Shown: positions 1 through 17,422 of the stretch, in pieces
Layout: every line of letters begins with the position of its first letter
Numbering within the stretch: the first letter of the stretch is position 1
DNA from: a virus
Taxonomy: Duplodnaviria > Heunggongvirae > Uroviricota > Caudoviricetes
Direction: 5' to 3' (one strand)
DNA length: 17,422 nucleotides
IMG/VR virus record: IMGVR_UViG_2600255005_000002
The notes under the pieces: model-generated
What the model saw: only the letters and a program-made list of their open reading frames with translations
Told to the model about the DNA's origin: nothing
Database searches by the model: none
Position numbers and translations under genes: made by a program

Positions 1-1506
1 TTAGTAAGTACGAATCTTCGGCGGGAATGCCGGGCGCAGTTTCGGTTCCATGTTGACGCTACGTCGCGTCATGGATTCCGACTCTGGCAGATACAGGGAG
101 TGACACAGCCAGTTTTCATCATCACGCTCCGGGAAGTCGAAGCGGCTATGCGCGCCACGGCTTTCGGTACGGAAGTTGGCAGAAACAGCCGTTGCATACG
201 CCGTTTCCATCAGGTTATCCAGTTCCAGGCATTCAACGCGCTGGGTGTTGAACTCGCTGGAGGTGTCATCCAGACGGGCATTTTTCAGACGCTCGCGGAT
301 CACTTTCAACTGCTCAAGCCCTTTCGCCATCGCATCACCTTCACGGAAGACCGAGAAGTTATGCTGCATACATTCTTGCAGTGCTTTACGAATCGCCACC
401 GGATCTTCACCGTTACGGTTGTTGTTCCAGCGGTTCAGGCGCTCCAGAGAAGCTTCGACATCAGACTCGCTGGCATCGCGCAGTGCGCCCTGTTCGGCGA
501 TAGACTCTTGCAGATGCAGACCTGCCGCACGACCAAAGACCACCAGGTCCAGCAGCGAGTTGCCGCCAAGACGGTTAGCGCCGTGTACCGATACGCAAGC
601 AATTTCACCCACCGCGAACAGGCCAGGAATCACCACATCTTCGCCCTTCTCGTTCACGGTCAGCGCCTGCCCGGTCACTTTGGTCGGAATACCGCCCATC
701 ATGTAGTGACAGGTTGGGATAACCGGAATCGGCTCTTTCACCGGATCGACGTGAGCGAAGGTACGGGAGAGTTCAAGAATGCCCGGCAGACGGGATTCGA
801 GAACTTCTTTACCCAGGTGGTCGAGTTTCAGTTTTGCGTGTGGTCCCCACGGGCCATCACAGCCACGACCTTCACGAATTTCGATCATGATGGAACGCGC
901 CACCACATCACGCCCCGCCAGGTCTTTGGCGTTCGGCGCATAACGCTCCATAAAGCGTTCGCCATGTTTGTTCAGCAGATAACCGCCTTCACCACGGCAA
1001 CCCTCGGTGACCAGTACGCCCGCACCGGCAATACCCGTCGGGTGGAACTGCCACATTTCCATATCCTGCACCGGTACGCCTGCACGGATAGCCATGCCGA
1101 CGCCGTCGCCGGTGTTAATGTGGGCGTTGGTGGTGGACTGATAAATACGCCCTGCTCCGCCAGTCGCCAGCACGGTAGCGCGGGCTTTGAAATAAACCAC
1201 TTCACCGGTTTCGATGCACAGTGCGGTACAACCGACCACTGCGCCATCCTGGTTTTTCACCAGATCCAGCGCATACCACTCGGAGAAAATGGTGGTGTGG
1301 TTTTTCAGGTTCTGCTGATAAAGGGTGTGCAACAGTGCGTGACCGGTACGGTCAGCCGCTGCCGCTGTACGTGCCGCCTGCTCGCCGCCGAAGTTTTTCG
1401 ACTGACCGCCAAACGGACGTTGATAGATACGACCATCATCAAGGCGCGAGAACGGCAGTCCCATGTGTTCCAGTTCCAGAATCGCTTCCGGCCCGGTTTT
1501 ACACAA
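1..1506 (-). CDS. sdhA: Succinate dehydrogenase flavoprotein subunit, 5'-truncated fragment (C-terminal ~500 of 588 residues); reading frame broken at junction near 1505
   Basis: Minus-strand ORF translation ends ...[12 protein letters not shown] and contains the flavoprotein motifs ([21 protein letters not shown]) recognised as E. coli SdhA. The track start at 1506 is TTG at a position where SdhA has an internal Met (..YMCKTGPEA..), so the N-terminal ~87 residues are absent. Stop codon is at 1-3. Confidence 0.9.
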
Positions 1507-1512
1507 GAGTTA

Positions 1513-1911
1513 ATGGAATTGGCAAGTGAATTTTCTGGCATGCTTAAGTCGTCAGGTGTTCGGTCAGCGTTCTTTGTTGAAATGCTGATGCACGGCGGAC
1601 TTATGGCAACAATGAGACGTGTAATGGAAGACCAGAGAAAAGAACCTCCTCAGGTATACGTTTTGTCATCGAAGAAAACTGGGCTAACCAAAATTGGGTA
1701 TTCATCCAACATTCCACAACGCATCAAATCGCTTGGCAACTCTGGACCAGACTGCTTGAAGCTTGAGTGCCTGATCCCTGGTGGAAGAGAAACTGAAAAC
1801 ATGCTTCATCGCAAATTTGCCGCAAAGAGAAAGCACGGTGAATGGTTCGCCCTGTCCAAGGATGACATTGAGGGATTGAAATCTGTAGCGATTACTTCTG
1901 ATGGCTATTAA
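1513..1911 (+). CDS. T5orf172-type (GIY-YIG superfamily-like) small domain protein; start uncertain (ATG at 1513, 1603 or 1624)
   Basis: C-terminal 132 codons of track ORF 100..1911, the only part not antisense to sdhA. Sequence PQVYVLSSKKTGLTKIGYSSNIPQRIKSL...ENMLHRKFAAKRKHGEWFALS shows GIY(VYV)-x11-YIG(KIG) spacing, conserved Arg and Glu, and the terminal GEWF motif typical of T5orf172 domains. GGCGGA lies 3 nt before the ATG at 1603; only weak AAGAG precedes 1513. Confidence 0.6.
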   Translation: MELASEFSGMLKSSGVRSAFFVEMLMHGGLMATMRRVMEDQRKEPPQVYVLSSKKTGLTKIGYSSNIPQRIKSLGNSGPDCLKLECLIPGGRETENMLHRKFAAKRKHGEWFALSKDDIEGLKSVAITSDGY

Positions 1912-2425
1912 TGCTTGTTTAGAGCAATTTTCATAACAACTCTTCATTACAAAGCCCATTTACGGGTGGGCTTGATAATGAAACCGGAATTTATTCTGGG
2001 CCACCAGTTAACGGCAGTACCACGAAACAACCCAAGCCAGTAAGTGGAGAAATAACACCGGCAGCCACTGAAAGATGAACCTCCTGCCTTATGGCAAAAA
2101 AGATTCTTTGTGGTGGCGGACTGATGGAAAGACATCGGTTATTGCAGAGGCCATTCAATGAGTGGTCTCGACAATGGCTTATACCCTACACGGGATAACT
2201 TAACTGATATCCCTTTTAACGGATAAAGGTATTCAAGCCTGACACATCATGCGCTGTATCGTCGCTGTACTCTTGCATTAATTATGACTGTAGCCTGACG
2301 GGGAACTCCTTCTGCGCGAGTGTGCGGGAATAATCAAAAACGATGCACACCGGGGTTACCGGGTACACATATTTCATCATGCCAGCGAGTCCGGTTCTGG
2401 CGCGGAAGAAACCGGACGTTATGAT

Positions 2426-2836
2426 TTAGTGCGGAAATATTTGTGTAGTGTTCTGAATGTTCTCAGTAAATAGTAATGAATTATCAAAGGTATAGTAATA
2501 CCTTTTGTTTTCGTGGATATTTGTAACCCACCGAAAAACTCCTGCTTTAGCAAGGTTTCTTCTGTATTCCTGAAATGTGATCTCTCTGGATTTCAGCTTA
2601 TTAGAGGTCGTTTCTATAAGATGCCTATCCTTTGAAAATTTGACAGACACAATGTTTTTTAGGCCCTTTAATAACACTGTATTATCATTTTTTAATACAA
2701 TATGAACATTCTCTGTGGCTAAATAGTAAATGTAATGTGAGACATTGTGACGTTTTAGCTCAGAATAAAACCATTGATAGTTTAAATCGTTTCGAACTTT
2801 ATCAAATATTTGTTTAAAAATGACTACCTGATCCAT
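2426..2836 (-). CDS. Lambdoid right-arm accessory protein, DUF1398-like (YdfO/YbcV-family homolog); function unknown
   Basis: Minus-strand ORF (track 2426..2851, 141 aa). The internal ATG at 2834-2836 ([11 protein letters not shown]...) has a GGAAGG Shine-Dalgarno 7 nt upstream, whereas the first ATG at 2851 has none. AT-rich; resembles from memory the ORF in the last ~1 kb of lambda and its cryptic-prophage homologs. Confidence 0.6.
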
Positions 2837-2893
2837 AGATAAACCTTCCATGTGATATGAGGGGGCGTAGTCTGCACGATTATCTAAATTGCT

Positions 2894-3127
2894 TCAATCT
2901 GGTCTGACCTGTTTTCTGAGCAATTCAGTAATGTCACTCTTTTCTTTGTTTGCTTCAGGAGAAACTCTTTTTTCTGAGCACAGTCTCCGGCGGCAGGCTT
3001 CAATGACCCAGGCTGAGAAATTCCCGGACCCTTTTTGATCAAGAGCGATGTTAATTTGTTCAATCATTTGGTTAGGAAAGCGGATGTTGCGGGTTGTTGT
3101 TCTGCGGGTTCTGTTCTTCGTTGACAT
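2894..3127 (-). CDS. Small basic ribbon-helix-helix-like protein, DUF3950-like (YnfO/YlcI-family homolog of the lambda right-end ORF)
   Basis: 77-aa minus-strand ORF MSTKNRTRRTTTRNIRFPNQMIEQINIALDQKGSGNFSAWVIEACRRRL... The N-terminal ~50 residues match from memory the small ORF encoded just left of cos in lambda; the C-terminus diverges. Confidence 0.55.
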   Translation of the reverse strand: MSTKNRTRRTTTRNIRFPNQMIEQINIALDQKGSGNFSAWVIEACRRRLCSEKRVSPEANKEKSDITELLRKQVRPD

Positions 3128-3289
3128 GAGGTTGCCCTGTATTCAGTGTCGCTGATTTGTATTGTCTGAAGTTGTTTTTACGTTAAGTTGATGCAGATCA
3201 ATTAATACGATACCTGCGTCATAATTGATTATTTGACGTGGTTTGATGGCGTAGATGCACGTTGTGACATGTAGATGATAATTATTATC

Positions 3290-3510
3290 ATTTTGCGGGT
3301 CCTTTCCGGCGATCCGACAGGTTACGGGGCGGCGACCTCGCGGGTTTTCGCTATTTATGAAAATTTTCCGGTTTAAGGCGTTTCCGTTCTTCTTCGTCGT
3401 AACTTAATGTTTTTATTTAAAATACCCCCTGAAAAGAAAGGAAACGACAGGTGCTGAAAACGAACTTTTGGGCCTCTGTCGTTTCCTTTCTCTGTTTTTG
3501 TCCGTGGAAT
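3290..3510 (+). promoter_or_regulatory. cos: Lambda-type cos site (cosQ - cosN - cosB with Nu1/IHF binding elements), present as a joined circular-form junction
   Basis: Sequence ...GATCCGACAGGTTACG|GGGCGGCGACCTCGCGGGTTTTCGCTATTTATGAAAATTTTCCGG... reproduces the lambda right-end/left-end junction. It lies immediately upstream of Nu1 and includes the 14-bp inverted repeat AAAGGAAACGACAG (3437-3450) / CTGTCGTTTCCTTT (3476-3489). Confidence 0.85.
3327..3338 (+). promoter_or_regulatory. cosN: cosN 12-nt cohesive-end sequence GGGCGGCGACCT (terminase nicking site)
   Basis: Exact 12-mer GGGCGGCGACCT at 3327-3338, flanked by the characteristic GTTACG and CGCGGG. Confidence 0.85.
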
Positions 3511-3515
3511 GAACA

Positions 3516-4034
3516 ATGGAAGTCAACAAAAAGCAGCTGGCTGACATTTTCGGTGCGAGCATCCGTACCATTCAGAACTGGCAGGAGCAGGGAATGCCCG
3601 TTCTGCGAGGTGGCGGGAAGGGTAATGAGGTGCTTTATGACTCTGCCGCCGTCTAAAATGGTATGCCGAAAGGGATGCTGAAATTGAGAACGAAAAGCTG
3701 CGCCGGGAGGTTGAAGAACTGCGGCAGGCCAGCGAGACAGATCTGCAGCCAGGGACTATTGAGTACGAACGCCATCGACTTACGCGTGCGCAGGCCGACG
3801 CACAGGAGCTGAAAAATGCCAGAGACTCCGCTGAAGTGGTGGAAACCGCATTCTGTACTTTCGTGCTGTCGCGGATCGCAGGTGAAATTGCCAGTATTCT
3901 CGACGGGATCCCCCTGTCGGTGCAGCGGCGTTTTCCGGAACTGGAAAACCGACATGTTGATTTCCTGAAACGGGATATCATCAAAGCCATGAACAAAGCA
4001 GCCGCGCTGGATGAACTGATACCGGGGTTGCTGA

Positions 4035-4060
<26 letters not shown>
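3516..4060 (+). pseudogene. Nu1: Terminase small subunit Nu1, disrupted by a -1 frameshift at about 3651-3656 (premature TAA at 3654)
   Basis: ATG at 3516 gives MEVNKKQLADIFGASIRTIQNWQEQGMPVLRGGGKGNEVLYDSAAV then stop. The remainder (KWYAERDAEIENEKL...SEYIEQSG, ending at 4060) continues in another frame. Window has GTCTAAAATGG where lambda (from memory) has GTCATAAAATGG. Confidence 0.85.
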
Positions 4061-7740
<3,680 letters not shown>

Positions 7741-7760
<20 letters not shown>

Positions 7761-9056
7761 TCTCCCGCATATTGCCAGTATGGCCTTTAATGAGCCGCTT
7801 ATGCGCGGGTTTTCTTTTGTGCGCTTGCAGGCCAGCTTGGGATCAGCCGCCTGACGGATGCGGTGTCCGGCGACAGCCTGACTGCCCAGGAGGCACTCGC
7901 GACGCTGGCATTATCCGGTGATGATGACGGACCACGACAGGCCCGCAGTTATCAGGTCATGAACGGCATCGCCGTGCTGCCGGTGTCCGGCACGCTGGTC
8001 AGCCGGACGCGGGCGCTGCAGCCGTATTCGGGGATGACCGGTTACAACGGCATTATCGCCCGTCTGCAACAGGCTGCCAGCGACCCGATGGTGGACGGCA
8101 TTCTGCTCGATATGGACACGCCAGGCGGAATGGTGGCGGGAGCATTTGACTGCGCTGACATCATTGCCCGTGTGCGTGACATAAAACCGGTATGGGCGCT
8201 GGCCAACGATATGAACTGCAGTGCAGGTCAGCTGCTTGCCAGTGCCGCCTCCCGGCGTCTGGTCACGCAGACCGCCCGGACAGGCTCCATCGGCGTCATG
8301 ATGGCTCACAGTAATTACGGTGCTGCGCTGGAGAAACAGGGTGTGGAAATCACGCTGATTTACAGCGGCAGCCATAAGGTGGATGGCAACCCCTACAGCC
8401 ATCTTCCGGATGACGTCCGGGAGACACTGCAGTCCCGGATGGATGCAACCCGCCGGATGTTTGCGCAGAAGGTGTCGGCATATACCGGCCTGTCTGTGCA
8501 GGCTGTGCTGGATACAGAGGCTGCAGTGTACAGCGGTCAGGAGGCCATTGATGCCGGACTGGCTGATGAACTTGTCAACAGCACCGATGCGATCACCGTT
8601 ATGCGTGATGCACTGGATGCACGTAAATCCCGTCTCTCAGGAGGGCGAATGACCAAAGAGACTCAATCAACAACTGTTTCAGCCACCGCTTCGCAGGCTG
8701 ACGTTACTGACGTGGTGCCAGCTACGGAGGGCGAAAACGCCAGCGCGGCGCAGCCGGACGTGAACGCGCAGATCACCGCAGCGGTTGCGGCAGAAAACAG
8801 CCGCATTATGGGGATCCTCAACTGTGAGGAGGCTCACGGACGCGAAGAACAGGCGCGCGTTCTGGCAGAAACCCCCGGAATGACCGTGGAAACGGCCCGC
8901 CGCATTCTGGCCGCAGCACCACAGAGTGCACAGGCGCGCAGTGACACTGCGCTGGATCGTCTGATGCAGGGTGCACCGGCACCGCTGGCTGCAGGTAACC
9001 TGGCATCTGATACCAATAAAGAATTACTTAATACACCTGAAGCTTTACCGGTATAA
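7741..9056 (+). pseudogene. C: Prohead protease/scaffold gpC, N-terminus disrupted by a ~16-bp deletion at about 7799-7800; downstream frame open
   Basis: GTG at 7741 gives MTAELRNLPHIASMAFNEPLM then diverges, with a stop at 7852-7854. The C sequence resumes in frame 0 (ARVFFCALAGQLGIS..SGDSLTAQEALATLALSGDDDGPRQ...). Window has GAGCCGCTTATGCGCGGG where lambda (from memory) has GAGCCGCTGATGCTTGAACCCGCCTATGCGCGGG. Confidence 0.75.
8439..9056 (+). CDS. Nu3: Scaffolding protein Nu3 (in-frame internal start within C), apparently intact
   Basis: ATG at 8439 (MDATRRMFAQKVSAYTGLSVQ...) is in the downstream C frame, which is uninterrupted to the stop at 9054-9056. C-terminus (..AAGNLASDTNKELLNTPEALPV) differs from lambda. 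Confidence 0.5.
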   Translation: MDATRRMFAQKVSAYTGLSVQAVLDTEAAVYSGQEAIDAGLADELVNSTDAITVMRDALDARKSRLSGGRMTKETQSTTVSATASQADVTDVVPATEGENASAAQPDVNAQITAAVAAENSRIMGILNCEEAHGREEQARVLAETPGMTVETARRILAAAPQSAQARSDTALDRLMQGAPAPLAAGNLASDTNKELLNTPEALPV

Positions 9057-9065
9057 GAGGCAGTT

Positions 9066-9398
9066 ATGGCGTCAAAAGAAGAGTTTAACCATTACCAGCC
9101 GCTGGGTAACAGTGATCCGGCTCATACAGCAATTGCGCCTGGCGGATTGAGTGCGAAAACGCCTGCAATGACCCCGCTGATGCTGGATGGCACTACCCGT
9201 AAGCTGGTTGTGTGGGATGGCACCACCGACGGTGCAGCCGTTGGCATTCTGGCGGTTGCTGCTGACCAGACCAGCACCACACTGACGTTCTACAAGTCCG
9301 GCTCGTTCCGTTATGAGGATGTGCTCTGGCCGGAGGCTGCCAGCGACGAGACTAAAAAACGGACCGCGTTTGCCGGAACGGCAATCAGCATCGTTTAA
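9066..9398 (+). CDS. D: Head decoration protein gpD (110 aa), divergent allele
   Basis: 110-aa [44 protein letters not shown]...FAGTAISIV; same length as lambda gpD with scattered substitutions; ATG preceded by AAGAGG. Confidence 0.9.
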
Positions 9399-9415
9399 TC
9401 TTCCCCTTCATCAAC

Positions 9416-9440
9416 AAAGGCCGCCTGTGCGGCTTTTTTT
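9416..9440 (+). terminator. Rho-independent terminator-like hairpin between D and E (GCCGC-CTGT-GCGGC followed by T7)
   Basis: AAAGGCCGCCTGTGCGGCTTTTTTT: 5-bp GC stem, 4-nt loop, seven T residues. Probably a partial terminator or mRNA-stability element, since E must be co-transcribed. Confidence 0.4.
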
Positions 9441-9453
9441 ATGGAAATAATTT

Positions 9454-10479
9454 ATGTCTGTATATACAACTGCAGAATTACTGGCATCGACCCAGCATCA
9501 CTTTAAGTTCGATCCGCTGTTTCTGCGTCTCTTTTTCCGTGAAACCTATCCTTTCACCACGGAAAAAGTCTATCTCTCACAAATTCCGGGACTGGTAAAC
9601 ATGGCGCTGTACGTTTCGCCGATTGTTTCCGGTGAGGTTATCCGATCCCGTGGCGGCTCCACCTCTGAATTTACGCCGGGTTATGTCAAGCCGAAGCATG
9701 AGGTGAATCCGCAGATGACCCTGCGTCGCCTGCCGGATGAAGATCCGCAGAACCTGGCTGACCCGGCTTACCGTCGTCGCCGTATTATTCGGCAGAATAT
9801 GCTGGATGAAAATCTGGCGATTGCCCAGGTCGAAGAGATGCAGGCAGTTTCTGCCGTGCTTAAGGGCAAATACACCATGACCGGTGAAGCCTTCGATCCG
9901 GTTGAGGTGGATATGGGCCGCAGTGCGGCGAATAACATCACGCAGTCCGGCGGCACGGAGTGGAGCAAGCGTGACAAGTCCACGTATGACCCGACCGACG
10001 ATATCGAAGCCTACGCGCTGAACGCCAGCGGTGTGGTGAATATCATCGTGTTTGATCCGAAAGGCTGGGCGCTGTTCCGTTCCTTCAAGGCCGTCAAGGA
10101 GAAGCTGGATACCCGTCGCGGCTCTCATTCCGAGCTGGAGACAGCGGTAAAAGACCTGGGCAAAGCGGTGTCTTATAAGGGAATGTATGGCGATGTGGCC
10201 ATCGTCGTGTATTCCGGACAGTACGTGGAAAACGGCGTCAAAAAGAACTTCCTGCCGGACAACACGATGGTGCTGGGGAACACTCAGGCACGCGGTCTGC
10301 GCACCTATGGTTGCATTCAGGATGCGGACGCACAGCGCGAAGGCATTAACGCCTCTGCCCGTTACCCGAAAAACTGGGTGACCACCGGCGACCCGGCGCG
10401 TGAGTTCACCATGATTCAGTCAGCACCGCTGATGCTGCTGGCTGACCCTGATGAGTTCGTGTCCGTACAACTGGCGTAA
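9454..10479 (+). CDS. E: Major capsid protein gpE (341 aa)
   Basis: 341-aa ORF MSVYTTAELLASTQHHFKFDPLFLRLFFRETYPFTTEKVYLSQIPGLVNMALYVSPIVSGE...; same length as lambda gpE; N-terminal residues differ from lambda (from memory). Confidence 0.95.
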   Translation: MSVYTTAELLASTQHHFKFDPLFLRLFFRETYPFTTEKVYLSQIPGLVNMALYVSPIVSGEVIRSRGGSTSEFTPGYVKPKHEVNPQMTLRRLPDEDPQNLADPAYRRRRIIRQNMLDENLAIAQVEEMQAVSAVLKGKYTMTGEAFDPVEVDMGRSAANNITQSGGTEWSKRDKSTYDPTDDIEAYALNASGVVNIIVFDPKGWALFRSFKAVKEKLDTRRGSHSELETAVKDLGKAVSYKGMYGDVAIVVYSGQYVENGVKKNFLPDNTMVLGNTQARGLRTYGCIQDADAQREGINASARYPKNWVTTGDPAREFTMIQSAPLMLLADPDEFVSVQLA

Positions 10480-10481
10480 TC

Positions 10482-10510
10482 ATGGCCCTTCGGGGCCATT
10501 TTCTCTCTGT
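10482..10510 (+). terminator. Hairpin downstream of E (ATGGCCC-TTCG-GGGCCAT followed by TTTCTCTCTG)
   Basis: Perfect 7-bp inverted repeat with a 4-nt loop at 10482-10499 followed by a pyrimidine/T-rich run, directly after the E stop codon and before the FI ribosome-binding site. Confidence 0.35.
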
Positions 10511-10520
10511 GGAGGAGTCC

Positions 10521-10916
10521 ATGACGAAAGATGAACTGATTGCCCGTCTCCGCTCGCTGGGTGAACAACTGAACCGTGATATCAGCCTGACGGGGACGAA
10601 AGAAGAACTGGCGCTCCGTGTGGCAGAGCTGGAAGAAGAGCTTGATGACACGGGCGACACTGCCGGTCAGGATACCCCTCTCAGCCCGGAAAATGTGCTG
10701 ACCGGACATGAAAATGAGGTTGTATCAGCGCAGCCGGATACCGTGACTGATACGGCTGATCTGGTCACGGTTGTGGCACTGGTGACGCTGCATACTGATG
10801 CACTTCACGCCACGCGGGATGAGGCTGTGGCATTTGTGCTGCCGGGAACGGCGTTTCGTGTCTCTGCCGGTGTGGCAGCCGAAATGACAGAGCGCGGCCT
10901 GGCCAGAATGCAATAA
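10521..10916 (+). CDS. FI: DNA-packaging / head assembly protein gpFI (131 aa)
   Basis: ATG at 10521 preceded by GGAGGAG; MTKDELIARLRSLGEQLNRD...ERGLARMQ. One codon shorter than lambda FI, with a substitution cluster in the middle. Confidence 0.85.
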   Translation: MTKDELIARLRSLGEQLNRDISLTGTKEELALRVAELEEELDDTGDTAGQDTPLSPENVLTGHENEVVSAQPDTVTDTADLVTVVALVTLHTDALHATRDEAVAFVLPGTAFRVSAGVAAEMTERGLARMQ

Positions 10917-10927
10917 CGGGAGGCGCT

Positions 10928-11281
10928 GTGGCTGATTTCGATAACCTGTTCGATGCTGCCATTGCCCGCGCCGATGAAACGATACGCGGGTACATGGGAA
11001 CGTCAGCCACCATGACATCCGGTGAGCAGTCCGGCGCAGTAATACGTGGTGTTTTTGATGACCCTGAAAATATCAGCTATGCCGGACAGGGCGTGCGCGT
11101 TGAAGGCTCCAGCCCGTCCCTGTTTGTCCGGACTGATGAGGTGCGGCAGCTGCGGCGTGGAGACACGCTGACCATCGGTGAGGAAAATTTCTGGGTAGAT
11201 CGGGTTTCGCCGGATGATGGCGGAAGTTGTCATCTCTGGCTTGGACGGGGCGTACCGCCTGCCGTTAACCGTCGCCGCTGA
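10928..11281 (+). CDS. FII: Head-tail connector protein gpFII (117 aa, GTG start)
   Basis: MADFDNLFDAAIARADETIRGYMGTSATMTSGEQSGAVIRGVFDDPENISYAGQGVRVEG...; GTG start preceded by GGGAGG. Confidence 0.85.
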   Translation: MADFDNLFDAAIARADETIRGYMGTSATMTSGEQSGAVIRGVFDDPENISYAGQGVRVEGSSPSLFVRTDEVRQLRRGDTLTIGEENFWVDRVSPDDGGSCHLWLGRGVPPAVNRRR

Positions 11282-11292
11282 AAGGGGGATGT

Positions 11293-11871
11293 ATGGCCAT
11301 AAAAGGTCTTGAGCAGGCCGTTGAAAACCTCAGCCGTATCAGCAAAACGGCGGTGCCTGGTGCCGCCGCAATGGCCATTAACCGCGTTGCTTCATCCGCG
11401 ATATCGCAGTCTGCGTCACAGGTTGCCCGTGAGACAAAGGTACGCCGGAAACTGGTAAAGGAAAGGGCCAGGCTGAAAAGAGCCACGGTCAAAAATCCGC
11501 AGGCCAGAATCAAAGTTAACCGGGGGGATTTGCCCGTAATCAGGCTGGGTAATGCGCGGGTTGTCCTGTCCCGCCGCAGGCGTCGTAAAAAGGGGCAGCG
11601 TTCATCCCTGAAAGGTGGCGGCAGCGTGCTTGTGGTGGGTAACCGTCGTATTCCCGGCGCGTTTATTCAGCAACTGAAAAATGGCCGGTGGCATGTTATG
11701 CAGCGTGTGGCCGGGAAAAACCGTTACCCCATTGATGTGGTGAAAATCCCGATGGCGGTGCCGCTGACCACGGCGTTTAAACAGAATATTGAACGGATAC
11801 GGCGTGAACGTCTTCCGAAAGAGCTGGGCTATGCGCTGCAGCATCAACTGAGAATGGTAATAAAGCGATGA
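11293..11871 (+). CDS. Z: Tail completion protein gpZ (192 aa)
   Basis: MAIKGLEQAVENLSRISKTAVPGAAAMAINRVASSAISQSASQVARETKVRRKL...; ATG preceded by AAGGGGGAT; overlaps U start (ATGA). Confidence 0.9.
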   Translation: MAIKGLEQAVENLSRISKTAVPGAAAMAINRVASSAISQSASQVARETKVRRKLVKERARLKRATVKNPQARIKVNRGDLPVIRLGNARVVLSRRRRRKKGQRSSLKGGGSVLVVGNRRIPGAFIQQLKNGRWHVMQRVAGKNRYPIDVVKIPMAVPLTTAFKQNIERIRRERLPKELGYALQHQLRMVIKR

Positions 11872-12263
11872 AACATACTGAACTCCGTGCAGCCGTACTG
11901 GATGCACTGGAGAAGCATGACACCGGGGCGACGCTTTTTGATGGTCGCCCCGCTGTTTTTGATGAGGAAGATTTTCCGGCAATTGCCGTTTATCTCACCG
12001 GCGCTGAATACACGGGCGAAGAGCTGGACAGCGATACCTGGCAGGCGGAGCTGCATATTGAAGTTTTCCTGCCTGCTCAGGTGCCGGATTCAGAGCTGGA
12101 TTCGTGGATGGAGTCCCGGATTTATCCGGTGATGAGCGATATCCCGGCACTGTCAGATTTGATCACCAGTATGGTGGCCAGTGGCTATGACTACCGGCGC
12201 GACGATGATGCGGGCCTGTGGAGTTCAGCCGATCTGACTTATGTCATTACCTATGAAATGTGA
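11868..12263 (+). CDS. U: Tail terminator protein gpU (131 aa)
   Basis: [56 protein letters not shown]... Confidence 0.9.
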
Positions 12264-12270
12264 GGACGAT

Positions 12271-13011
12271 ATGCCTGTACCAAATCCAGCAATACCGGTG
12301 AAAGGTGCCGGAACCACCCTGTGGGTTTATAACGGGAGCGGCGACCCTTATGCAAACCCGCTTTCAGACGTTGACTGGTCGCGTCTGGCTAAAGTTAAAG
12401 ACCTGACGCCCGGCGAACTGACCGCTGAGTCCTATGACGACAGCTATCTCGATGATGAAGATGCAGACTGGACTGCGACCGGACAGGGGCAGAAATCTGC
12501 CGGAGATACCAGCTTCACGCTGGCGTGGATGCCCGGAGAGCAGGGGCAGCAGGCGCTGCTGGCGTGGTTTAATGAAGGCGATACCCGTGCCTATAAAATC
12601 CGCTTCCCGAACGGCACGGTCGATGTGTTCCGTGGCTGGGTCAGCAGTATCGGTAAGGCGGTGACGGCGAAGGAAGTGATCACCCGCACGGTGAAAGTCA
12701 CCAATGTGGGACGTCCGTCGATGGCAGAAGATCGCAGCACGGTAACAGCGGCAACCGGCATGACCGTGACGCCTGCCAGCACCTCGGTGGTGAAAGGGCA
12801 GAGCACCACGCTGACCGTGGCATTCCAGCCGGAAGGCGCAACCGACAAGAGCTTCCGTGCGGTGTCTGCGGATAAAACAAAAGCCACCGTGTCGGTCAGT
12901 GGTATGACCATCACCGTGAAAGGTGTTGCTGCAGGCAAGGTCAACATTCTGGTCGTATCCGGTAATGGTGAACTTGCTGCGGTTGCAGAAATCAACGTCA
13001 CCGCCAGTTAA
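12271..13011 (+). CDS. V: Major tail tube protein gpV (246 aa) with C-terminal Ig-like domain
   Basis: ATG at 12271 ([30 protein letters not shown]...) preceded by GAGGACG. The track ORF begins 10 codons upstream at an ATG lacking a ribosome-binding site. C-terminal ~90 residues are Thr/Val-rich and Ig-like. Confidence 0.9.
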
Positions 13012-13026
13012 TCCGGAGAGTCAGCG

Positions 13027-13449
13027 ATGTTCCTGAAAACCGAATCATTTGAACATAACGGTGTGACCGTCACGCTTTCTGAACTGTCAGCCCTGCAGCG
13101 TATTGAGCATCTCGCCCTGATGAAACGACAGGCAGAACAGGCGGAGTCAGACAGCAACCGGAAGTTTACTGTGGAAGACGCCATCAGAACCGGCGCTTTT
13201 GTGGTGGCGATGTCCCTGTGGCATAACCATCCGCAGAAGACAAAGCTGCCTTCCATGAATGAAGCCGTTAAACAGATTGAGCAGGAAGTGCTTACCACCT
13301 GGCCCACGGAGGCAATTTCTCATGCTGAAAACGTGGTGTACCGGCTGTCCGGTATGTATGAGTTTGTGGTGAATGATGCTCCTGAACAGGCAGATGACGC
13401 CGGGCCTGCAGAGCCTGTTTCTGCGGGAAAGTGTTCGACGGTGAGCTGA
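13027..13449 (+). CDS. G: Tail assembly chaperone gpG (140 aa)
   Basis: MFLKTESFEHNGVTVTLSELSALQRIEHLALMKRQAEQAESDSNRKF...PVSAGKCSTVS; ATG preceded by GGAGAG. Confidence 0.9.
   Translation: MFLKTESFEHNGVTVTLSELSALQRIEHLALMKRQAEQAESDSNRKFTVEDAIRTGAFVVAMSLWHNHPQKTKLPSMNEAVKQIEQEVLTTWPTEAISHAENVVYRLSGMYEFVVNDAPEQADDAGPAEPVSAGKCSTVS
13425..13431 (+). promoter_or_regulatory. Programmed -1 ribosomal frameshift slippery heptamer G GGA AAG producing the G-T fusion
   Basis: GGGAAAG at 13425-13431 near the 3' end of G, arranged X XXY YYZ in the G frame. The -1 frame continues directly into the T reading frame (FDGELSFALKLAREMG...). Confidence 0.7.
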
Positions 13450-13865
13450 GTTTTGCCCTGAAACTGGCGCGTGAGATGGGGCGACCCGACTGGCGTGCCA
13501 TGCTTGCCGGGATGTCATCCACGGAGTATGCCGACTGGCACCGCTTTTACAGTACCCATTATTTTCATGATGTTCTGCTGGATATGCACTTTTCCGGGCT
13601 GACATATACCGTGCTCAGCCTGTTTTTCAGCGATCCGGATATGCATCCGCTGGATTTCAGTCTGCTTAACCGGCGTGAGGCTGACGAAGAGCCTGAAGAT
13701 GATGTGCTGATGCAGAAAGCGGTAGGGCTTGCCGGAGGCGTTCGTTTTGGCCCGGACGGGAAAGAAGTTATCCCCGCTTCCCCGGATGTAGCGGACATGA
13801 CGGAGGATGACGTAATGCTGATGACAGTATCAGAAGGGATCGCAGGAGGAGTCCGGTATGGCTGA
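13431..13865 (+). CDS. T: gpT portion of the tail assembly chaperone, expressed as the G-T fusion by -1 frameshifting (fusion spans 13027-13865)
   Basis: Frame-0 ORF of 144 codons (..FDGELSFALKLAREMGRPDWRAMLAGMSSTEYADWHRFYSTHYFHDVLL...), with no independent ATG or ribosome-binding site; begins at the slippery site and ends at the TGA overlapping the H start. Confidence 0.8.
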   Translation: MFDGELSFALKLAREMGRPDWRAMLAGMSSTEYADWHRFYSTHYFHDVLLDMHFSGLTYTVLSLFFSDPDMHPLDFSLLNRREADEEPEDDVLMQKAVGLAGGVRFGPDGKEVIPASPDVADMTEDDVMLMTVSEGIAGGVRYG

Positions 13866-16419
13866 ACCGGTAGGCGATCTGGTCGTTGATTTAAGTCTGG
13901 ATGCGGCCAGATTTGACGAGCAGATGGCCAGAGTCAGGCGTCATTTTTCCGGTACGGAAAGTGATGCGAAAAAAACAGCGGCAGTCGTTGAACAGTCGAT
14001 GAACCGGCAGGCGCTGGCTGCACAGAAAGCGGGGATTTCCGTCGGGCAGTATAAAGCCGCCATGCGTATGCTGCCTGCACAGTTCACCGACGTGGCCACG
14101 CAGCTTGCAGGCGGGCAAAGTCCGTGGCTGATCCTGCTGCAACAGGGGGGTCAGGTGAAGGACTCCTTCGGCGGGATGATCCCCATGTTCCGGGGGCTTG
14201 CCGGTGCGATCACCCTGCCGATGGTCGGGGCCACCTCGCTGGCGGTGGCGACCGGTGCGCTGGCGTATGCCTGGTATCAGGGCAACTCAACCCTGTCCGA
14301 TTTCAACAAAACGCTGGTTCTTTCCGGCAATCAGTCGGGGCTGACGGCAGATCGTATGCTGGTCCTGTCCAGAGCCGGGCAGGCGGCAGGGCTGACGTTT
14401 AACCAGACCAGCGAGTCACTCAGCGCACTGGTTAAGGCGGGGGTAAGCGGTGAGGCTCAGATTGCGTCCATCAGCCAGAGTGTGGCGCGTTTCTCTTCTG
14501 CATCCGGCGTGGAGGTGGACAAGGTCGCTGAAGCCTTCGGGAAGCTGACCACTGACCCGACGTCGGGGCTGACGGCGATGGCGCGCCAGTTCCATAACGT
14601 GACGGCGGAGCAGATTGCGTATGTTGCTCAGTTGCAGCGTTCCGGCGATGAAGCCGGGGCATTGCAGGCGGCGAACGAGGCCGCAACGAAAGGGTTTGAT
14701 GACCAGACCCGACGCCTGAAAGAGAACATGGGCACGCTGGAAACCTGGGCAGACAGGACAGCACGGGCATTCAAATCCATGTGGGATGCGGTGCTGGATA
14801 TTGGTCGTCCTGATACCGCTCAGGAGATGCTGATTAAGGCAGAGGCTGCGTTTAAGAAAGCGGACGACATCTGGAATCTGCGCAAGGATGATTATTTTGT
14901 TAACGATGAAGCGCGGGCGCGTTACTGGGATGACCGTGAAAAGGCCCGTCTTGCGCTTAAAGCCGCCCGAAAGAAGGCTGAACAGCAGAGTCAACAGGAC
15001 AAAAATGCGCAGCAGCAGAGCGATACCGAAGCGTCACGGCTGAAATATACCGAAGAGGCGCAGAAGGCTTACGAACGGCTGCAGACACCGCTGGAGAAAT
15101 ATACCGCCCGTCAGGAAGAACTGAACAAGGCACTGAAAGACGGGAAAATCCTGCAGGCAGATTACAACACGCTGATGGCGGCGGCGAAAAAGGATTATGA
15201 AGCGACGCTGAAAAAGCCGAAACAGTCCGGCGTGAAGGTGTCTGCGGGCGATCGTCAGGAAGACAGTGCTCATGCTGCCCTGCTGACGCTTCAGGCAGAA
15301 CTCCGGACGCTGGAGAAGCATGCCGGAGCGAATGAGAAAATCAGCCAGCAGCGCCGGGATTTGTGGAAGGCGGAAAATCAGTTCGCGGTACTGGAGGAGG
15401 CGGCACAACGTCGCCAGCTATCCGCACAGGAGAAATCCCTGCTGGCGCATAAAGATGAGACGCTGGAGTACAAACGCCAGCTGGCTGTACTTGGCGATAA
15501 GGTCACGTATCAGGAGCACCTGAATGCGCTGGCGCAGCAGGCGGATAAGTTCGCACAGCAACAACGGGCAAAACGGGCAGCCATTGAGGCGAAAAACCGG
15601 GGGCTTACTGACCGGCAGGCAGCGCGGGAAGCCACAGAACAGCGCCTGAAGGAACAGTATGGCGATAATTCGCTGGCGCTGAATAACGTCATGTCAGAGC
15701 AGAAAAAGACCTGGGCGGCTGAAGACCAGCTTCGCGGGAGCTGGATGGCAGGCCTCAAGTCCGGCTGGAGTGAGTGGGAAGAGAGCGCCACGGACAGTAT
15801 GTCGCAGGTTAAAAGTGCAGCCACGCAGACCTTTGATGGTATTGCGCAGAATATGGCGGCGATGCTGACCGGCAGTGAACAGAACTGGCGCAGCTTCACC
15901 CGCTCCGTGCTGTCCATGATGACAGAAATTCTGCTTAAGCAGGCAATGGTGGGGATTGTCGGGAGTATCGGCAGCGCCATTGGCGGGGCTGTTGGTGGCG
16001 GCGCATCAGCGTCAGGCGGTACAGCCATTCAGGCAGCTGCGGCGAAATTCCATTTTGCGACCGGAGGATTTACGGGAACCGGCGGCAAATATGAGCCAGC
16101 GGGGATTGTTCACCGTGGTGAATTTGTCTTCACTAAGGAGGCAACCAGCCGGATTGGCGTGGGGAATCTCTACCGGCTGATGCGCGGCTATGCCACCGGC
16201 GGTTATGTCGGTACACCGGGCAGCATGGCGGACAGCCGCTCGCAGGCGTCCGGGAAGTTTGAGCAGAATAACCATGTGGTGATTAACAACGACGGCACGA
16301 ACGGTCAGATAGGGCCACAGGCGCTGAAGGCGGTTTATGACGTAGCCCGTAAGGCGGCAATGGATGTTGTGACCGGGCAGATGCGCGATGGTGGTCTGTT
16401 CTCCGGAGGTGGACGATGA
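13858..16419 (+). CDS. H: Tail tape measure protein gpH (853 aa)
   Basis: 853-aa ORF MAEPVGDLVVDLSLDAARFDEQMARVRRHFSGTESDAKKTAAVVEQS..., with a long central coiled-coil-like Ala/Gln/Lys/Glu-rich region and C-terminal Gly-rich segment; same length as lambda gpH. Confidence 0.95.
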   Translation: MAEPVGDLVVDLSLDAARFDEQMARVRRHFSGTESDAKKTAAVVEQSMNRQALAAQKAGISVGQYKAAMRMLPAQFTDVATQLAGGQSPWLILLQQGGQVKDSFGGMIPMFRGLAGAITLPMVGATSLAVATGALAYAWYQGNSTLSDFNKTLVLSGNQSGLTADRMLVLSRAGQAAGLTFNQTSESLSALVKAGVSGEAQIASISQSVARFSSASGVEVDKVAEAFGKLTTDPTSGLTAMARQFHNVTAEQIAYVAQLQRSGDEAGALQAANEAATKGFDDQTRRLKENMGTLETWADRTARAFKSMWDAVLDIGRPDTAQEMLIKAEAAFKKADDIWNLRKDDYFVNDEARARYWDDREKARLALKAARKKAEQQSQQDKNAQQQSDTEASRLKYTEEAQKAYERLQTPLEKYTARQEELNKALKDGKILQADYNTLMAAAKKDYEATLKKPKQSGVKVSAGDRQEDSAHAALLTLQAELRTLEKHAGANEKISQQRRDLWKAENQFAVLEEAAQRRQLSAQEKSLLAHKDETLEYKRQLAVLGDKVTYQEHLNALAQQADKFAQQQRAKRAAIEAKNRGLTDRQAAREATEQRLKEQYGDNSLALNNVMSEQKKTWAAEDQLRGSWMAGLKSGWSEWEESATDSMSQVKSAATQTFDGIAQNMAAMLTGSEQNWRSFTRSVLSMMTEILLKQAMVGIVGSIGSAIGGAVGGGASASGGTAIQAAAAKFHFATGGFTGTGGKYEPAGIVHRGEFVFTKEATSRIGVGNLYRLMRGYATGGYVGTPGSMADSRSQASGKFEQNNHVVINNDGTNGQIGPQALKAVYDVARKAAMDVVTGQMRDGGLFSGGGR

Positions 16420-16745
16420 AAACCTTCCGCTGGAAAGTGAAACCCGGTATGGATGTGGCTTCGGCCCCTTCCGTAAGAAAGGTGCGCTTTGGTGATGGCT
16501 ATTCTCAGCGAGCGCCTGCCGGGCTGAATGCCGACCTGAAAACGTACAGCGTGACGCTTTCTGTTCCCCGTTGGGAGGCCACGGCGCTTGAGTCGTTTCT
16601 GGCTGAGCACGGGGGCTGGAAATCCTTTCTGTGGACGCCGCCTTATGAGTGGCGGCAGATAAAGGTGACCTGCGCAAAATGGTCGTCGCGGGTCAGTATG
16701 CTGCGTGTTGAGTTCAGCGCAGAGTTTGAACAGGTGGTGAACTGA
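16416..16745 (+). CDS. M: Minor tail protein gpM (109 aa)
   Basis: MKTFRWKVKPGMDVASAPSVRKVRFGDGYSQRAPAGLNADLKTYSVTLSV...; ATGA overlap with the H stop. Confidence 0.9.
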   Translation: MKTFRWKVKPGMDVASAPSVRKVRFGDGYSQRAPAGLNADLKTYSVTLSVPRWEATALESFLAEHGGWKSFLWTPPYEWRQIKVTCAKWSSRVSMLRVEFSAEFEQVVN

Positions 16746-17422
16746 TGCAGGATATCCGGCAGGAAACACTGAATGAATGCACCCGTGCGGAGCAGTCGGC
16801 CAGCGTGGTGCTCTGGGAAATCGATCTGACAGAGGTCGGTGGAGAACGTTATTTTTTCTGTAATGAGCAGAACGAAAAAGGTGAGCCGGTCACCTGGCAG
16901 GGGCGACAGTATCAGCCGTATCCCATTCAGGGGAGCGGTTTTGAACTGAATGGCAAAGGCACCAGTACGCGCCCCACGCTGACGGTCTCTAACCTGCACG
17001 GCATGGTCACCGGTATGGCGGAAGACCTGCAGAGTCTGGTCGGCGGAACGGTGGTCCGGCGTAAGGTTTACGCCCGTTTTCTGGATGCGGTGAACTTCGT
17101 TAACGGAAACAGCGACGCCGATCCGGAGCAGGAGGTGATCAGCCGCTGGCGCATCGAACAGTGCAGCGAACTGAGCGCGGTGAGTGCCTCTTTTGTACTG
17201 TCCACGCCGACTGAAACGGATGGTGCTGTTTTTCCGGGGCGCATCATGCTGGCTAATACCTGCACCTGGACCTATCGCGGTGATGAGTGCGGTTATCACG
17301 GTCCGGCTGCAAATTGTATTCTGCCGGAGCAGAAAGCAATTAACGTTTGGAGAACTGCGGACGACGACGTGCTTTACGCAGACCGACTTTCTTACGTTCA
17401 ACCTGACGAGCGTCACGAGTAA
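16745..17422 (+). CDS. L: Minor tail protein gpL, 3'-truncated: L-derived sequence ends at about 17297-17310, after which the open frame reads through antisense rpsI sequence to the window end
   Basis: MQDIRQETLNECTRAEQSASVVLWEIDLTEVGGERYFFCNEQNEKGEPVTWQGRQYQPYPIQGSGFELNGKG...CTWTYRGDECGY matches lambda gpL (232 aa in lambda). The following residues (HGPAANCILPEQKAINVWRTADDDV...) are not L; no stop codon within the window. Confidence 0.75.
   Translation: MQDIRQETLNECTRAEQSASVVLWEIDLTEVGGERYFFCNEQNEKGEPVTWQGRQYQPYPIQGSGFELNGKGTSTRPTLTVSNLHGMVTGMAEDLQSLVGGTVVRRKVYARFLDAVNFVNGNSDADPEQEVISRWRIEQCSELSAVSASFVLSTPTETDGAVFPGRIMLANTCTWTYRGDECGYHGPAANCILPEQKAINVWRTADDDVLYADRLSYVQPDERHE
17340..17422 (-). 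CDS. rpsI: 30S ribosomal protein S9, 3' end only (last 26 codons plus stop); gene continues beyond the window
   Basis: Minus-strand translation of 17343-17420 is TRDARQVERKKVGLRKARRRPQFSKR followed by TAA (17340-17342), identical to the C-terminus of E. coli S9 as remembered. Confidence 0.8.
   Translation of the reverse strand, partial: TRDARQVERKKVGLRKARRRPQFSKR

Follow-up and report, generated by a model that had tools for sequence, protein, structure and literature searches.

Does sdhA of Escherichia sp. TW11588 really end in its 88th codon at the edge of a phage, or was this boundary made outside the cell? The question is raised by a stretch of 17,422 nucleotides (henceforth the window) whose first letters are the minus-strand stop codon of sdhA. 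An earlier examination of the letters by themselves, here called the sequence-only reading, had noticed that sdhA is cut at about codon 88 and that phage DNA directly adjoins it, and both translation and BLAST confirm this observation.

Source of the window

The window is part of a single record, AEMF01000001.1 (GCA_000208585.2), a gapless "contig" of 4,463,584 bp from a 2011 draft genome, of which our view covered about 36 kb. TW11588 is a soil isolate of cryptic clade IV (PMC7716201 Table A1; PMC3466228 Table 1), i.e., its species is E. ruysiae, and its assembly has served as a cryptic clade IV reference in comparative studies (PMC7716201, PMC3466228, PMC6650469). Papers mentioning TW11588 give the strain, clade and accession and do not describe the assembly procedure. 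As a conspecific reference we used the E. ruysiae representative NZ_CABVLQ010000001.1, whose main contig of 4.65 Mb is ca. 0.19 Mb longer than AEMF01000001.1 (4.46 Mb). GCA_000208585.2 presumably once gave its name to a GTDB species placeholder. Among 5,426 complete E. coli genomes searched with BLAST, the best identity to the sdhA arm was 96.7%, which indicates that the host is not a typical E. coli. The left arm of the TW11588 record and the E. ruysiae reference are 99.986% identical over 7,137 overlapping nt.

The junction between sdhA and phage DNA

Positions 1–1505 (minus strand) carry the 3' 1,505 nt of sdhA, from T263 of codon 88 to the stop codon at 1–3, as established by translation, BLAST and the match to E. 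ruysiae. Leftward of this remnant, the record continues with sdhB-sucABCD-cydA. BLAST matched window positions 1–1505, and never a base beyond, in 5,426/5,426 complete E. coli genomes, while NZ_CABVLQ010000001.1 is identical over the same positions (0 mismatches, 100.000%) and then reads TATATTC onward through an intact sdhA into sdhD-sdhC. Phage identity starts at 1506 by BLAST and by base-level comparison. A three-way comparison of the window, the E. ruysiae sdhA and an intact phage places the left junction between 1505 and 1506 as a blunt join with 0 nt of microhomology: the next base of sdhA would be T and the window has A, and the base before the join is C in the phage reference and A in the window. 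The intact phage reads ATCGC ahead of AGAGTTAATGG, where sdhA would go on with TATATTC.

In minus-strand translation, SdhA can be read from Cys89 to its C-terminus, and upstream of Cys89 stand TTG (1504–1506), CTC (1507–1509) and the stop codon TAA (1510–1512). The TTG indeed occupies the position of the Met88 ATG, as the sequence-only reading had it, because base 1506 is already the first phage base. That reading had ended the match to sdhA at 1503; the break in the reading frame stands, whereas DNA identity to both E. coli and E. ruysiae reaches 1505, which answers the check proposed there, to fix the last matching base by alignment to an E. coli sdh locus. The stop, placed one codon past the TTG in the same account, lies two codons away. 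The 30-mer that flanks the break, searched against a single genome for each species, matched 27 species, and 27/27 continue as sdhA. The segment spanning the join was covered to at least 80% in 0/5,426 complete E. coli genomes.

Seven nt past 1506, at position 1513, an ATG opens a plus-strand ORF of 132 aa (1513–1911) for a GIY-YIG-type (T5orf172/MUG113) protein, identified by Pfam and RefSeq annotation. The sequence-only assignment of this ORF to T5orf172 holds, with Pfam scores of 41.4 bits for T5orf172 (cut-off 20) and 56.5 bits for MUG113 (cut-off 22.3). In RefSeq, the GIY-YIG gene encodes 162 aa and starts 83 nt upstream of the break. Under this gene model the phage gene would be 5'-truncated as well, inside codon 28, and sdhA and the GIY-YIG gene would both be cut internally, head to head. 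The 132-aa form is routinely called in intact prophages, and the gene calls listed for AEMF01000001.1 in the gene collection include no gene at the position of the 1513 ORF. A scan for promoters and terminators around the left break returned nothing exceeding shuffle expectation. The concern that the ORF has no room for a promoter of its own becomes moot, as the join severs this ORF from the rest of the native gene and from the region upstream.

The phage segment

Positions 1506–17309 (plus strand) are an internal slice of a lambdoid prophage of the very common DLP12/argU-site type, 15,804 bp long and recognized by its collinearity with an intact comparator. The slice runs from inside the GIY-YIG gene to about codon 188 of tail gene L. 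It is collinear, at about 96–97% identity, with prophages of 2,926 complete E. coli genomes, and prophages in five other assemblies match window positions 3875–17309 at 99.85%. The intact relatives carry an integrase and sit at argU, and their sequence runs past both break points. In the comparator, which lies at tRNA-Arg (argU) between fimZ and appY-ompT, the order is int, then further on Q, a porin, essD-rrrD-Rz, GIY-YIG, DUF1398, ylcI, nohD, terminase, W, portal, protease, D and E, and after further genes H, M, L, K, I, J, lom, stf and tfa. Gene order and sequence of 1506–17309 match those of DLP12 and other argU-site prophages. Unlike these, the TW11588 slice comprises only the middle 15.8 kb, does not lie at argU, has lesions in Nu1, portal and protease, and lacks intD, argU, Q, the nmpC-like porin, the lysis cassette and K-I-J-stf. 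Analysis of ORFs and Pfam families revealed neither an integrase nor an att site in the slice, and early genes, lysis genes and the K-I-J tail tip are missing as well.

Behind the GIY-YIG ORF, two moron-like genes occupy 2426–3127 on the minus strand according to Pfam and annotation, one for a DUF1398 protein (2426–2851) and one for a DUF3950/YlcI-YnfO protein (2894–3127). All phage genes that follow are on the plus strand. Alignment to an intact relative and gene calls reveal that the nohD/Nu1 small terminase gene (3516–4060) has a 1-nt deletion at 3654 that leaves a 46-aa stub. The terminase large subunit (641 aa) and gpW (68 aa) at 4035–6163 are intact (Pfam GpA_ATPase/GpA_nuclease and gpW). 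Alignment to intact relatives shows that the portal gene (6160–7760) lacks 1 nt at 6409 and is thereby split into products of 135 and 398 aa. In the gene for the C-like (S49) head protease/scaffold (7863–9056), the loss of 16 nt at 7800, between CCGCT direct repeats, leaves a shortened product of 397 aa. D, E, FI, FII, Z, U, V, G, T, H (853 aa) and M, each assigned to its Pfam family, are all intact (9066–16745).

The 398-aa portal product is also found on 6 other contigs from independent assemblies, a recurrence that makes the frameshift a genuine circulating allele. For the portal lesion we therefore rejected the idea that the phage frameshifts are a sign of poor base quality. A 397-aa protease is also called on one other contig, from Logan ERR13369248, there without the 16-nt deletion of the TW11588 slice.

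The junction between tail gene L and rpsI

The phage segment has a second end. Of tail gene L, the 5' 565 nt are present (16745–17309, plus strand), the match to L stopping at 17309; the reading frame continues into chromosomal DNA up to a stop codon at 17420–17422, which yields a fusion product of 225 aa in the source record in place of the intact 232 aa. The three-way comparison places the right junction between 17309 and 17310, again blunt, with 1 nt (G) that could belong to either side. In the numbering of AEMF01000001.1, the left junction falls at 1,200,393/1,200,394 and the right one at 1,216,197/1,216,198. The chromosomal piece beyond it (17310–17422, minus strand) consists of the 30 nt downstream of rpsI (17310–17339), the rpsI stop codon (17340–17342) and the 3' coding end. 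The base ahead of 17310 is, in E. coli, the final nucleotide of the palindromic hairpin of the rpsI terminator, AAAAAAACCCGCCGAAGCGGGTTTTTTCG, which is followed at the break by CAAATTG. After L, the record continues with rpsI, rplM, zapE, zapG, degQ, degS, mdh and argR.

On the K-12 map, sdhA (755.9–757.7 kb) and rpsI (3,377.8–3,378.2 kb) are 2.6 Mb apart. The window thus reads from the 16-min region of the chromosome (reversed) through a prophage slice into the 72-min region. DNA of the L gene, in which the right break falls, occurs at a median of 3 places per genome in BLAST searches of the complete E. coli genomes.

Tests for a biological boundary

An attL or attR prophage end would be expected to show an integrase module, an att core repeat and a terminus at the phage's own att site. 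Neither ORF analysis nor Pfam revealed an integrase or transposase in the window or in the 10 kb of the record on either side, and the window contains 0 tRNA genes. No direct repeat of at least 8 nt is common to the two junction neighbourhoods, shared 7-mers being at shuffle level, and inverted repeats common to both do not exceed shuffle expectation. A single 9-nt inverted match lies within 100 nt of both ends, 40–90 nt from the junctions, and such matches are likewise at shuffle level. Of the two breaks in the phage, neither is at att: one lies within the GIY-YIG gene or shortly upstream of it, the other within tail gene L. An IS element or transposon would be marked by terminal inverted repeats, a target-site duplication and a transposase, none of which is seen here: in the three-way comparison, no bases of sdhA or of the rpsI flank are repeated. 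The repeat and tRNA scans thus bear out the sequence-only reading that target-site duplication, att core, tRNA and IS end are lacking, and breaks inside phage genes, with neither integrase nor att, agree with its judgement that this is not a normal prophage boundary. Its picture of phage cargo joined to sdhA as a biological insertion is not supported, given that the phage DNA is an internal slice with a second blunt end at 17309/17310 and that the conspecific sdhA is intact.

Two marks of a join between contigs are, by comparison, present. Both sides are continuous in close relatives, each join is unique to one record, only 0 and 1 nt are shared across the joins, and two non-syntenic joins lie 15.8 kb apart. 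No N spacer is found at either of them.

Occurrence of the junctions in other sequences

Neither the left nor the right junction occurs in any of the 5,426 complete E. coli genomes, neither was found in IMG/VR, and the left junction was not found in metagenome contigs. A search of 185,579 species representatives, one genome per species, recovered neither junction. Exact lookup across 153 billion gene positions located the truncated, ATG-started SdhA of 487 aa on exactly one contig, and the 225-aa L-fusion also on exactly one. Intact SdhA of 588 aa with the identical C-terminus is present on 120 contigs. A TTG-started form of 501 aa has no exact match among the gene calls.

If the DNA had been rearranged in the cell, the sequences cut off at the breaks could have been joined to each other. 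We predicted such reciprocal fusions by linking the 5' part of sdhA with the upstream region of the GIY-YIG gene, with the sspA side or with what is left of L. None of the fusions (n = 4), whose tails were taken from non-TW11588 sequences, and no bare 87-aa SdhA N-terminus (residues 1–87, ending in AIEY) was present in a collection of 15 billion proteins. Among cluster representatives of SdhA N-terminal fragments, none diverges at residue 87/88, where the fragment sought may be uncalled or not a representative.

An 88-aa SdhA N-terminal product (residues 1–88) occurs on 305 contigs. Base 267 of sdhA is a common TGT/TGC polymorphism, and these products are best explained as contigs from de Bruijn graphs that fork at a SNP. 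We also considered, and rejected, an insertion hot spot at SdhA codon 88, since sdhA is uninterrupted in the 5,426 complete E. coli genomes and all 109 metagenome contigs examined continue as sdhA.

Origin of the junctions

The evidence favours an assembly artefact in which separately assembled contigs were placed end to end, to which we assign a probability of about 0.8. On these sequence comparisons, we infer that the joins are the work of software, at the stage of assembly, scaffolding or submission, and not of the cell. At least three separately assembled pieces would have been abutted without an N spacer in AEMF01000001.1: a chromosomal contig ending inside sdhA, a 15.8-kb contig holding the unique middle of a lambdoid prophage, and another chromosomal contig, whose first base adjoins the rpsI terminator. 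Several observations support this reading. The two blunt joins, each of which cuts a gene or an operon end, lie 15.8 kb apart; the three pieces are never neighbours in any reference; the left arm is 100.000% identical to a conspecific intact sdhA; both junctions occur in one record only; and integrase, att, tRNA, target-site duplication, terminal inverted repeats and Ns are all missing. A record shorter than the conspecific main contig is, moreover, as expected with collapsed or dropped repeats. It is well established that short reads of the 2010 era cannot be assembled de novo across seven rRNA operons, repeated IS elements and multiple lambdoid prophages into a gapless contig of 4.46 Mb. The possibility of an assembly chimera, which the sequence-only reading had put forward for weighing, thus gains support from two blunt joins that are unique to one draft record.

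Drafts in which contigs were concatenated into gapless pseudo-molecules offer the closest likeness, as they too contain blunt, repeat-free and non-syntenic joins that occur in one record; for TW11588, this likeness is drawn from 36 kb. Prophage-internal contigs typically end where the sequence becomes common to another prophage, and such drafts resemble the present record also in containing a prophage-internal contig bounded where lambdoid phages share sequence. Three points speak against an artefact. The left chromosomal break falls in a unique gene with no obvious repeat, the base-level quality looks good and the record is not generally sloppy, and the arms lie to each other as expected after a single inversion between the replichores, an arrangement that randomly oriented contigs would have with a chance of 50%.

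A variant of this explanation is that the assembler itself, or a merging step, made one mis-assembled contig, as opposed to a concatenation of finished contigs. The evidence for such a chimera is identical to that for concatenation, and hybrid and merging pipelines of the period did produce chimeric joins. However, overlap and de Bruijn joins normally pass through a repeat of k-mer or overlap length, and the 0 and 1 nt shared here fit abutment better. We regard this variant as unlikely.

A real rearrangement in TW11588 appears distinctly improbable to us. It would have to combine several steps, namely a large inversion between sdhA and the sspA-rpsI spacer and the capture of a lambdoid prophage or further breaks, and would have inactivated sdhA. 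In its favour, sdhA-sdhB-suc and rpsI-rplM are on the same strand, as an inter-replichore inversion leaves them, the lesions in Nu1, portal and protease could mark the slice as a decaying remnant, and the joins contain no Ns. Enterobacterial inversions that are mediated by prophages or arise illegitimately likewise leave distant loci adjacent and inverted with phage DNA at the joint. Known inversions of this kind, however, run between homologous copies of prophages, IS elements or rrn operons, and the resulting elements are hybrid yet complete, whereas the breaks here are blunt and inside unique genes, with no reciprocal joint found. At least two to three independent illegitimate recombinations with 0–1 nt of microhomology would be required within 16 kb, and the remnant of an inactivated sdhA (1–1505) would have to show zero divergence from the conspecific intact gene. 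Based on K-12 coordinates and the positions of oriC and dif, the inversion would leave the replichores unbalanced at ca. 70:30. The cell would have to dispense with succinate dehydrogenase, and none of the other assemblies and collections that were searched contains the junctions. That the predicted reciprocal fusions are missing from the protein collection also counts against a rearrangement, as a weak negative given that their tails derive from non-TW11588 sequences.

Finally, a genuine defective-prophage boundary, left by a deletion that took away gltA-sdhCD, nucleotides 1–262 of sdhA and the prophage half with the early and lysis genes, is highly implausible: the geometry of the left junction would fit if the prophage lay inverted upstream of sdh, yet this leaves the second blunt junction to rpsI at 17309/17310 unexplained, no prophage lies beside sdh in the E. 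ruysiae reference or in 26 other species representatives, and the closest phage relatives sit at argU.

Implications

Should the arrangement be physically real, which we hold to be improbable, the chromosome of a soil E. ruysiae would be inverted, asymmetrically and over a large distance, from sdhA to the rpsI terminator, and a 15.8-kb fragment of a defective lambdoid prophage would have been captured at the blunt joint. TW11588 would then live without succinate dehydrogenase, and its genome would record end-joining-like repair, with prophage DNA as filler, in a bacterium without classical NHEJ.

The junction is a real feature of the record and most probably not of the organism, and as such probably has little biological importance; its value would lie in a warning about a reference assembly. 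If AEMF01000001.1 is a gapless concatenation of contigs, the truncations of sdhA and of tail gene L are false, and the fusion ORFs deposited in protein databases, among them the 225-aa L-fusion (UniParc UPI0002BA354F), are not real proteins. Synteny, island and prophage-boundary calls made on this record would be unreliable, and scans for unusual junctions should filter out such records. The living strain most probably has an intact sdhA that leads on to sdhD-sdhC, and most probably carries the prophage whole at the phage's own attachment site, which in its closest relatives is argU.

Sequence ends at the sdhA and rpsI junctions

Residues 1-88 of SdhA exactly constitute a protein annotated as 'partial' (P0183, WP_000775513.1) that occurs in 305 contigs. 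The site at which these partial products end is sdhA codon 88/89, just beyond window position 1505 (compared loci L073-L181). Since base 267 of sdhA is a common polymorphism (TGT/TGC), the 88-aa partials probably stem from contigs that fork at this SNP rather than from insertions. Frameshifted SdhA variants are likewise 88 aa long and end at a hidden out-of-frame TAA within TGTAAA.

The start of the prophage GIY-YIG/T5orf172 gene (window 1513-1911; 5918-6406 in the compared locus L001) differs between annotations, with a product of 162 aa in RefSeq versus 132 aa according to the gene caller of a large collection. The 30 additional codons of the 162-aa form are open and in frame, and an AAGG motif lies ahead of them. 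For the TW11588 record, the gene tables of the collection contain no entry at this position (window 1513-1911).

A second, likewise blunt junction is located at window 17309-17310. Here, tail gene L is broken at codon ~188 and abuts 30 nt that are located downstream of rpsI, right next to the rpsI terminator hairpin, generating a 225-aa L-fusion ORF (window 16745-17422) as the product of the junction. This ORF is now present in UniParc as UPI0002BA354F.

Two parts of the window also occur side by side in a mosaic prophage (L003, GCA_052242375.1, 9994-14015). In this locus, a lysis-GIY-YIG-DUF1398-ylcI module (99.95% identity to window 1506-3599) directly adjoins a tape-measure gene segment (99.87% identity to window 13868-15424), which is followed by Mu-like baseplate genes.

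Gene lesions

The chromosomal gene zapE, right of the window in AEMF01000001.1 (L016 14538-15667), falls into two pieces of 222 and 159 aa. Compared with E. coli, a reference that is not conspecific, the record differs by a net +2 nt within a AAGAAAAC stretch; zapE may be a true pseudogene here, or the split may come from an error in the base sequence.

Within the phage, the nohD/Nu1 gene (window 3516-4060) carries a 1-nt deletion at 3654, which leaves only a 46-aa stub of the small terminase subunit. Independently of this deletion, contigs of many draft assemblies stop 137 nt into Nu1, yielding partial 46-aa calls, which suggests that lambdoid prophages commonly have a repeat boundary at this point.

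The S49 head protease has lost its normal start region through a 16-nt deletion at window 7800 (between 7760 and 7863), leaving a 397-aa ORF with a GTG start. The deletion is flanked by two CCGCT direct repeats, a slippage-like arrangement, and among the loci compared it occurs in TW11588 only. A Logan contig with the same 397-aa call differs from TW11588 in its upstream sequence.

The portal gene (window 6160-7760) is split into pieces of 135 and 398 aa by a 1-nt deletion at 6409 (GGG-CTTTTTT in the window versus GGGTCTTTTTT). The same 398-aa product and the 135-aa upstream fragment are called in six further contigs from independent assemblies. Because the 398-aa product is identical in all six, while the phages carrying it share an overall identity of only about 96%, the frameshifted portal allele is in circulation among lambdoid prophages.
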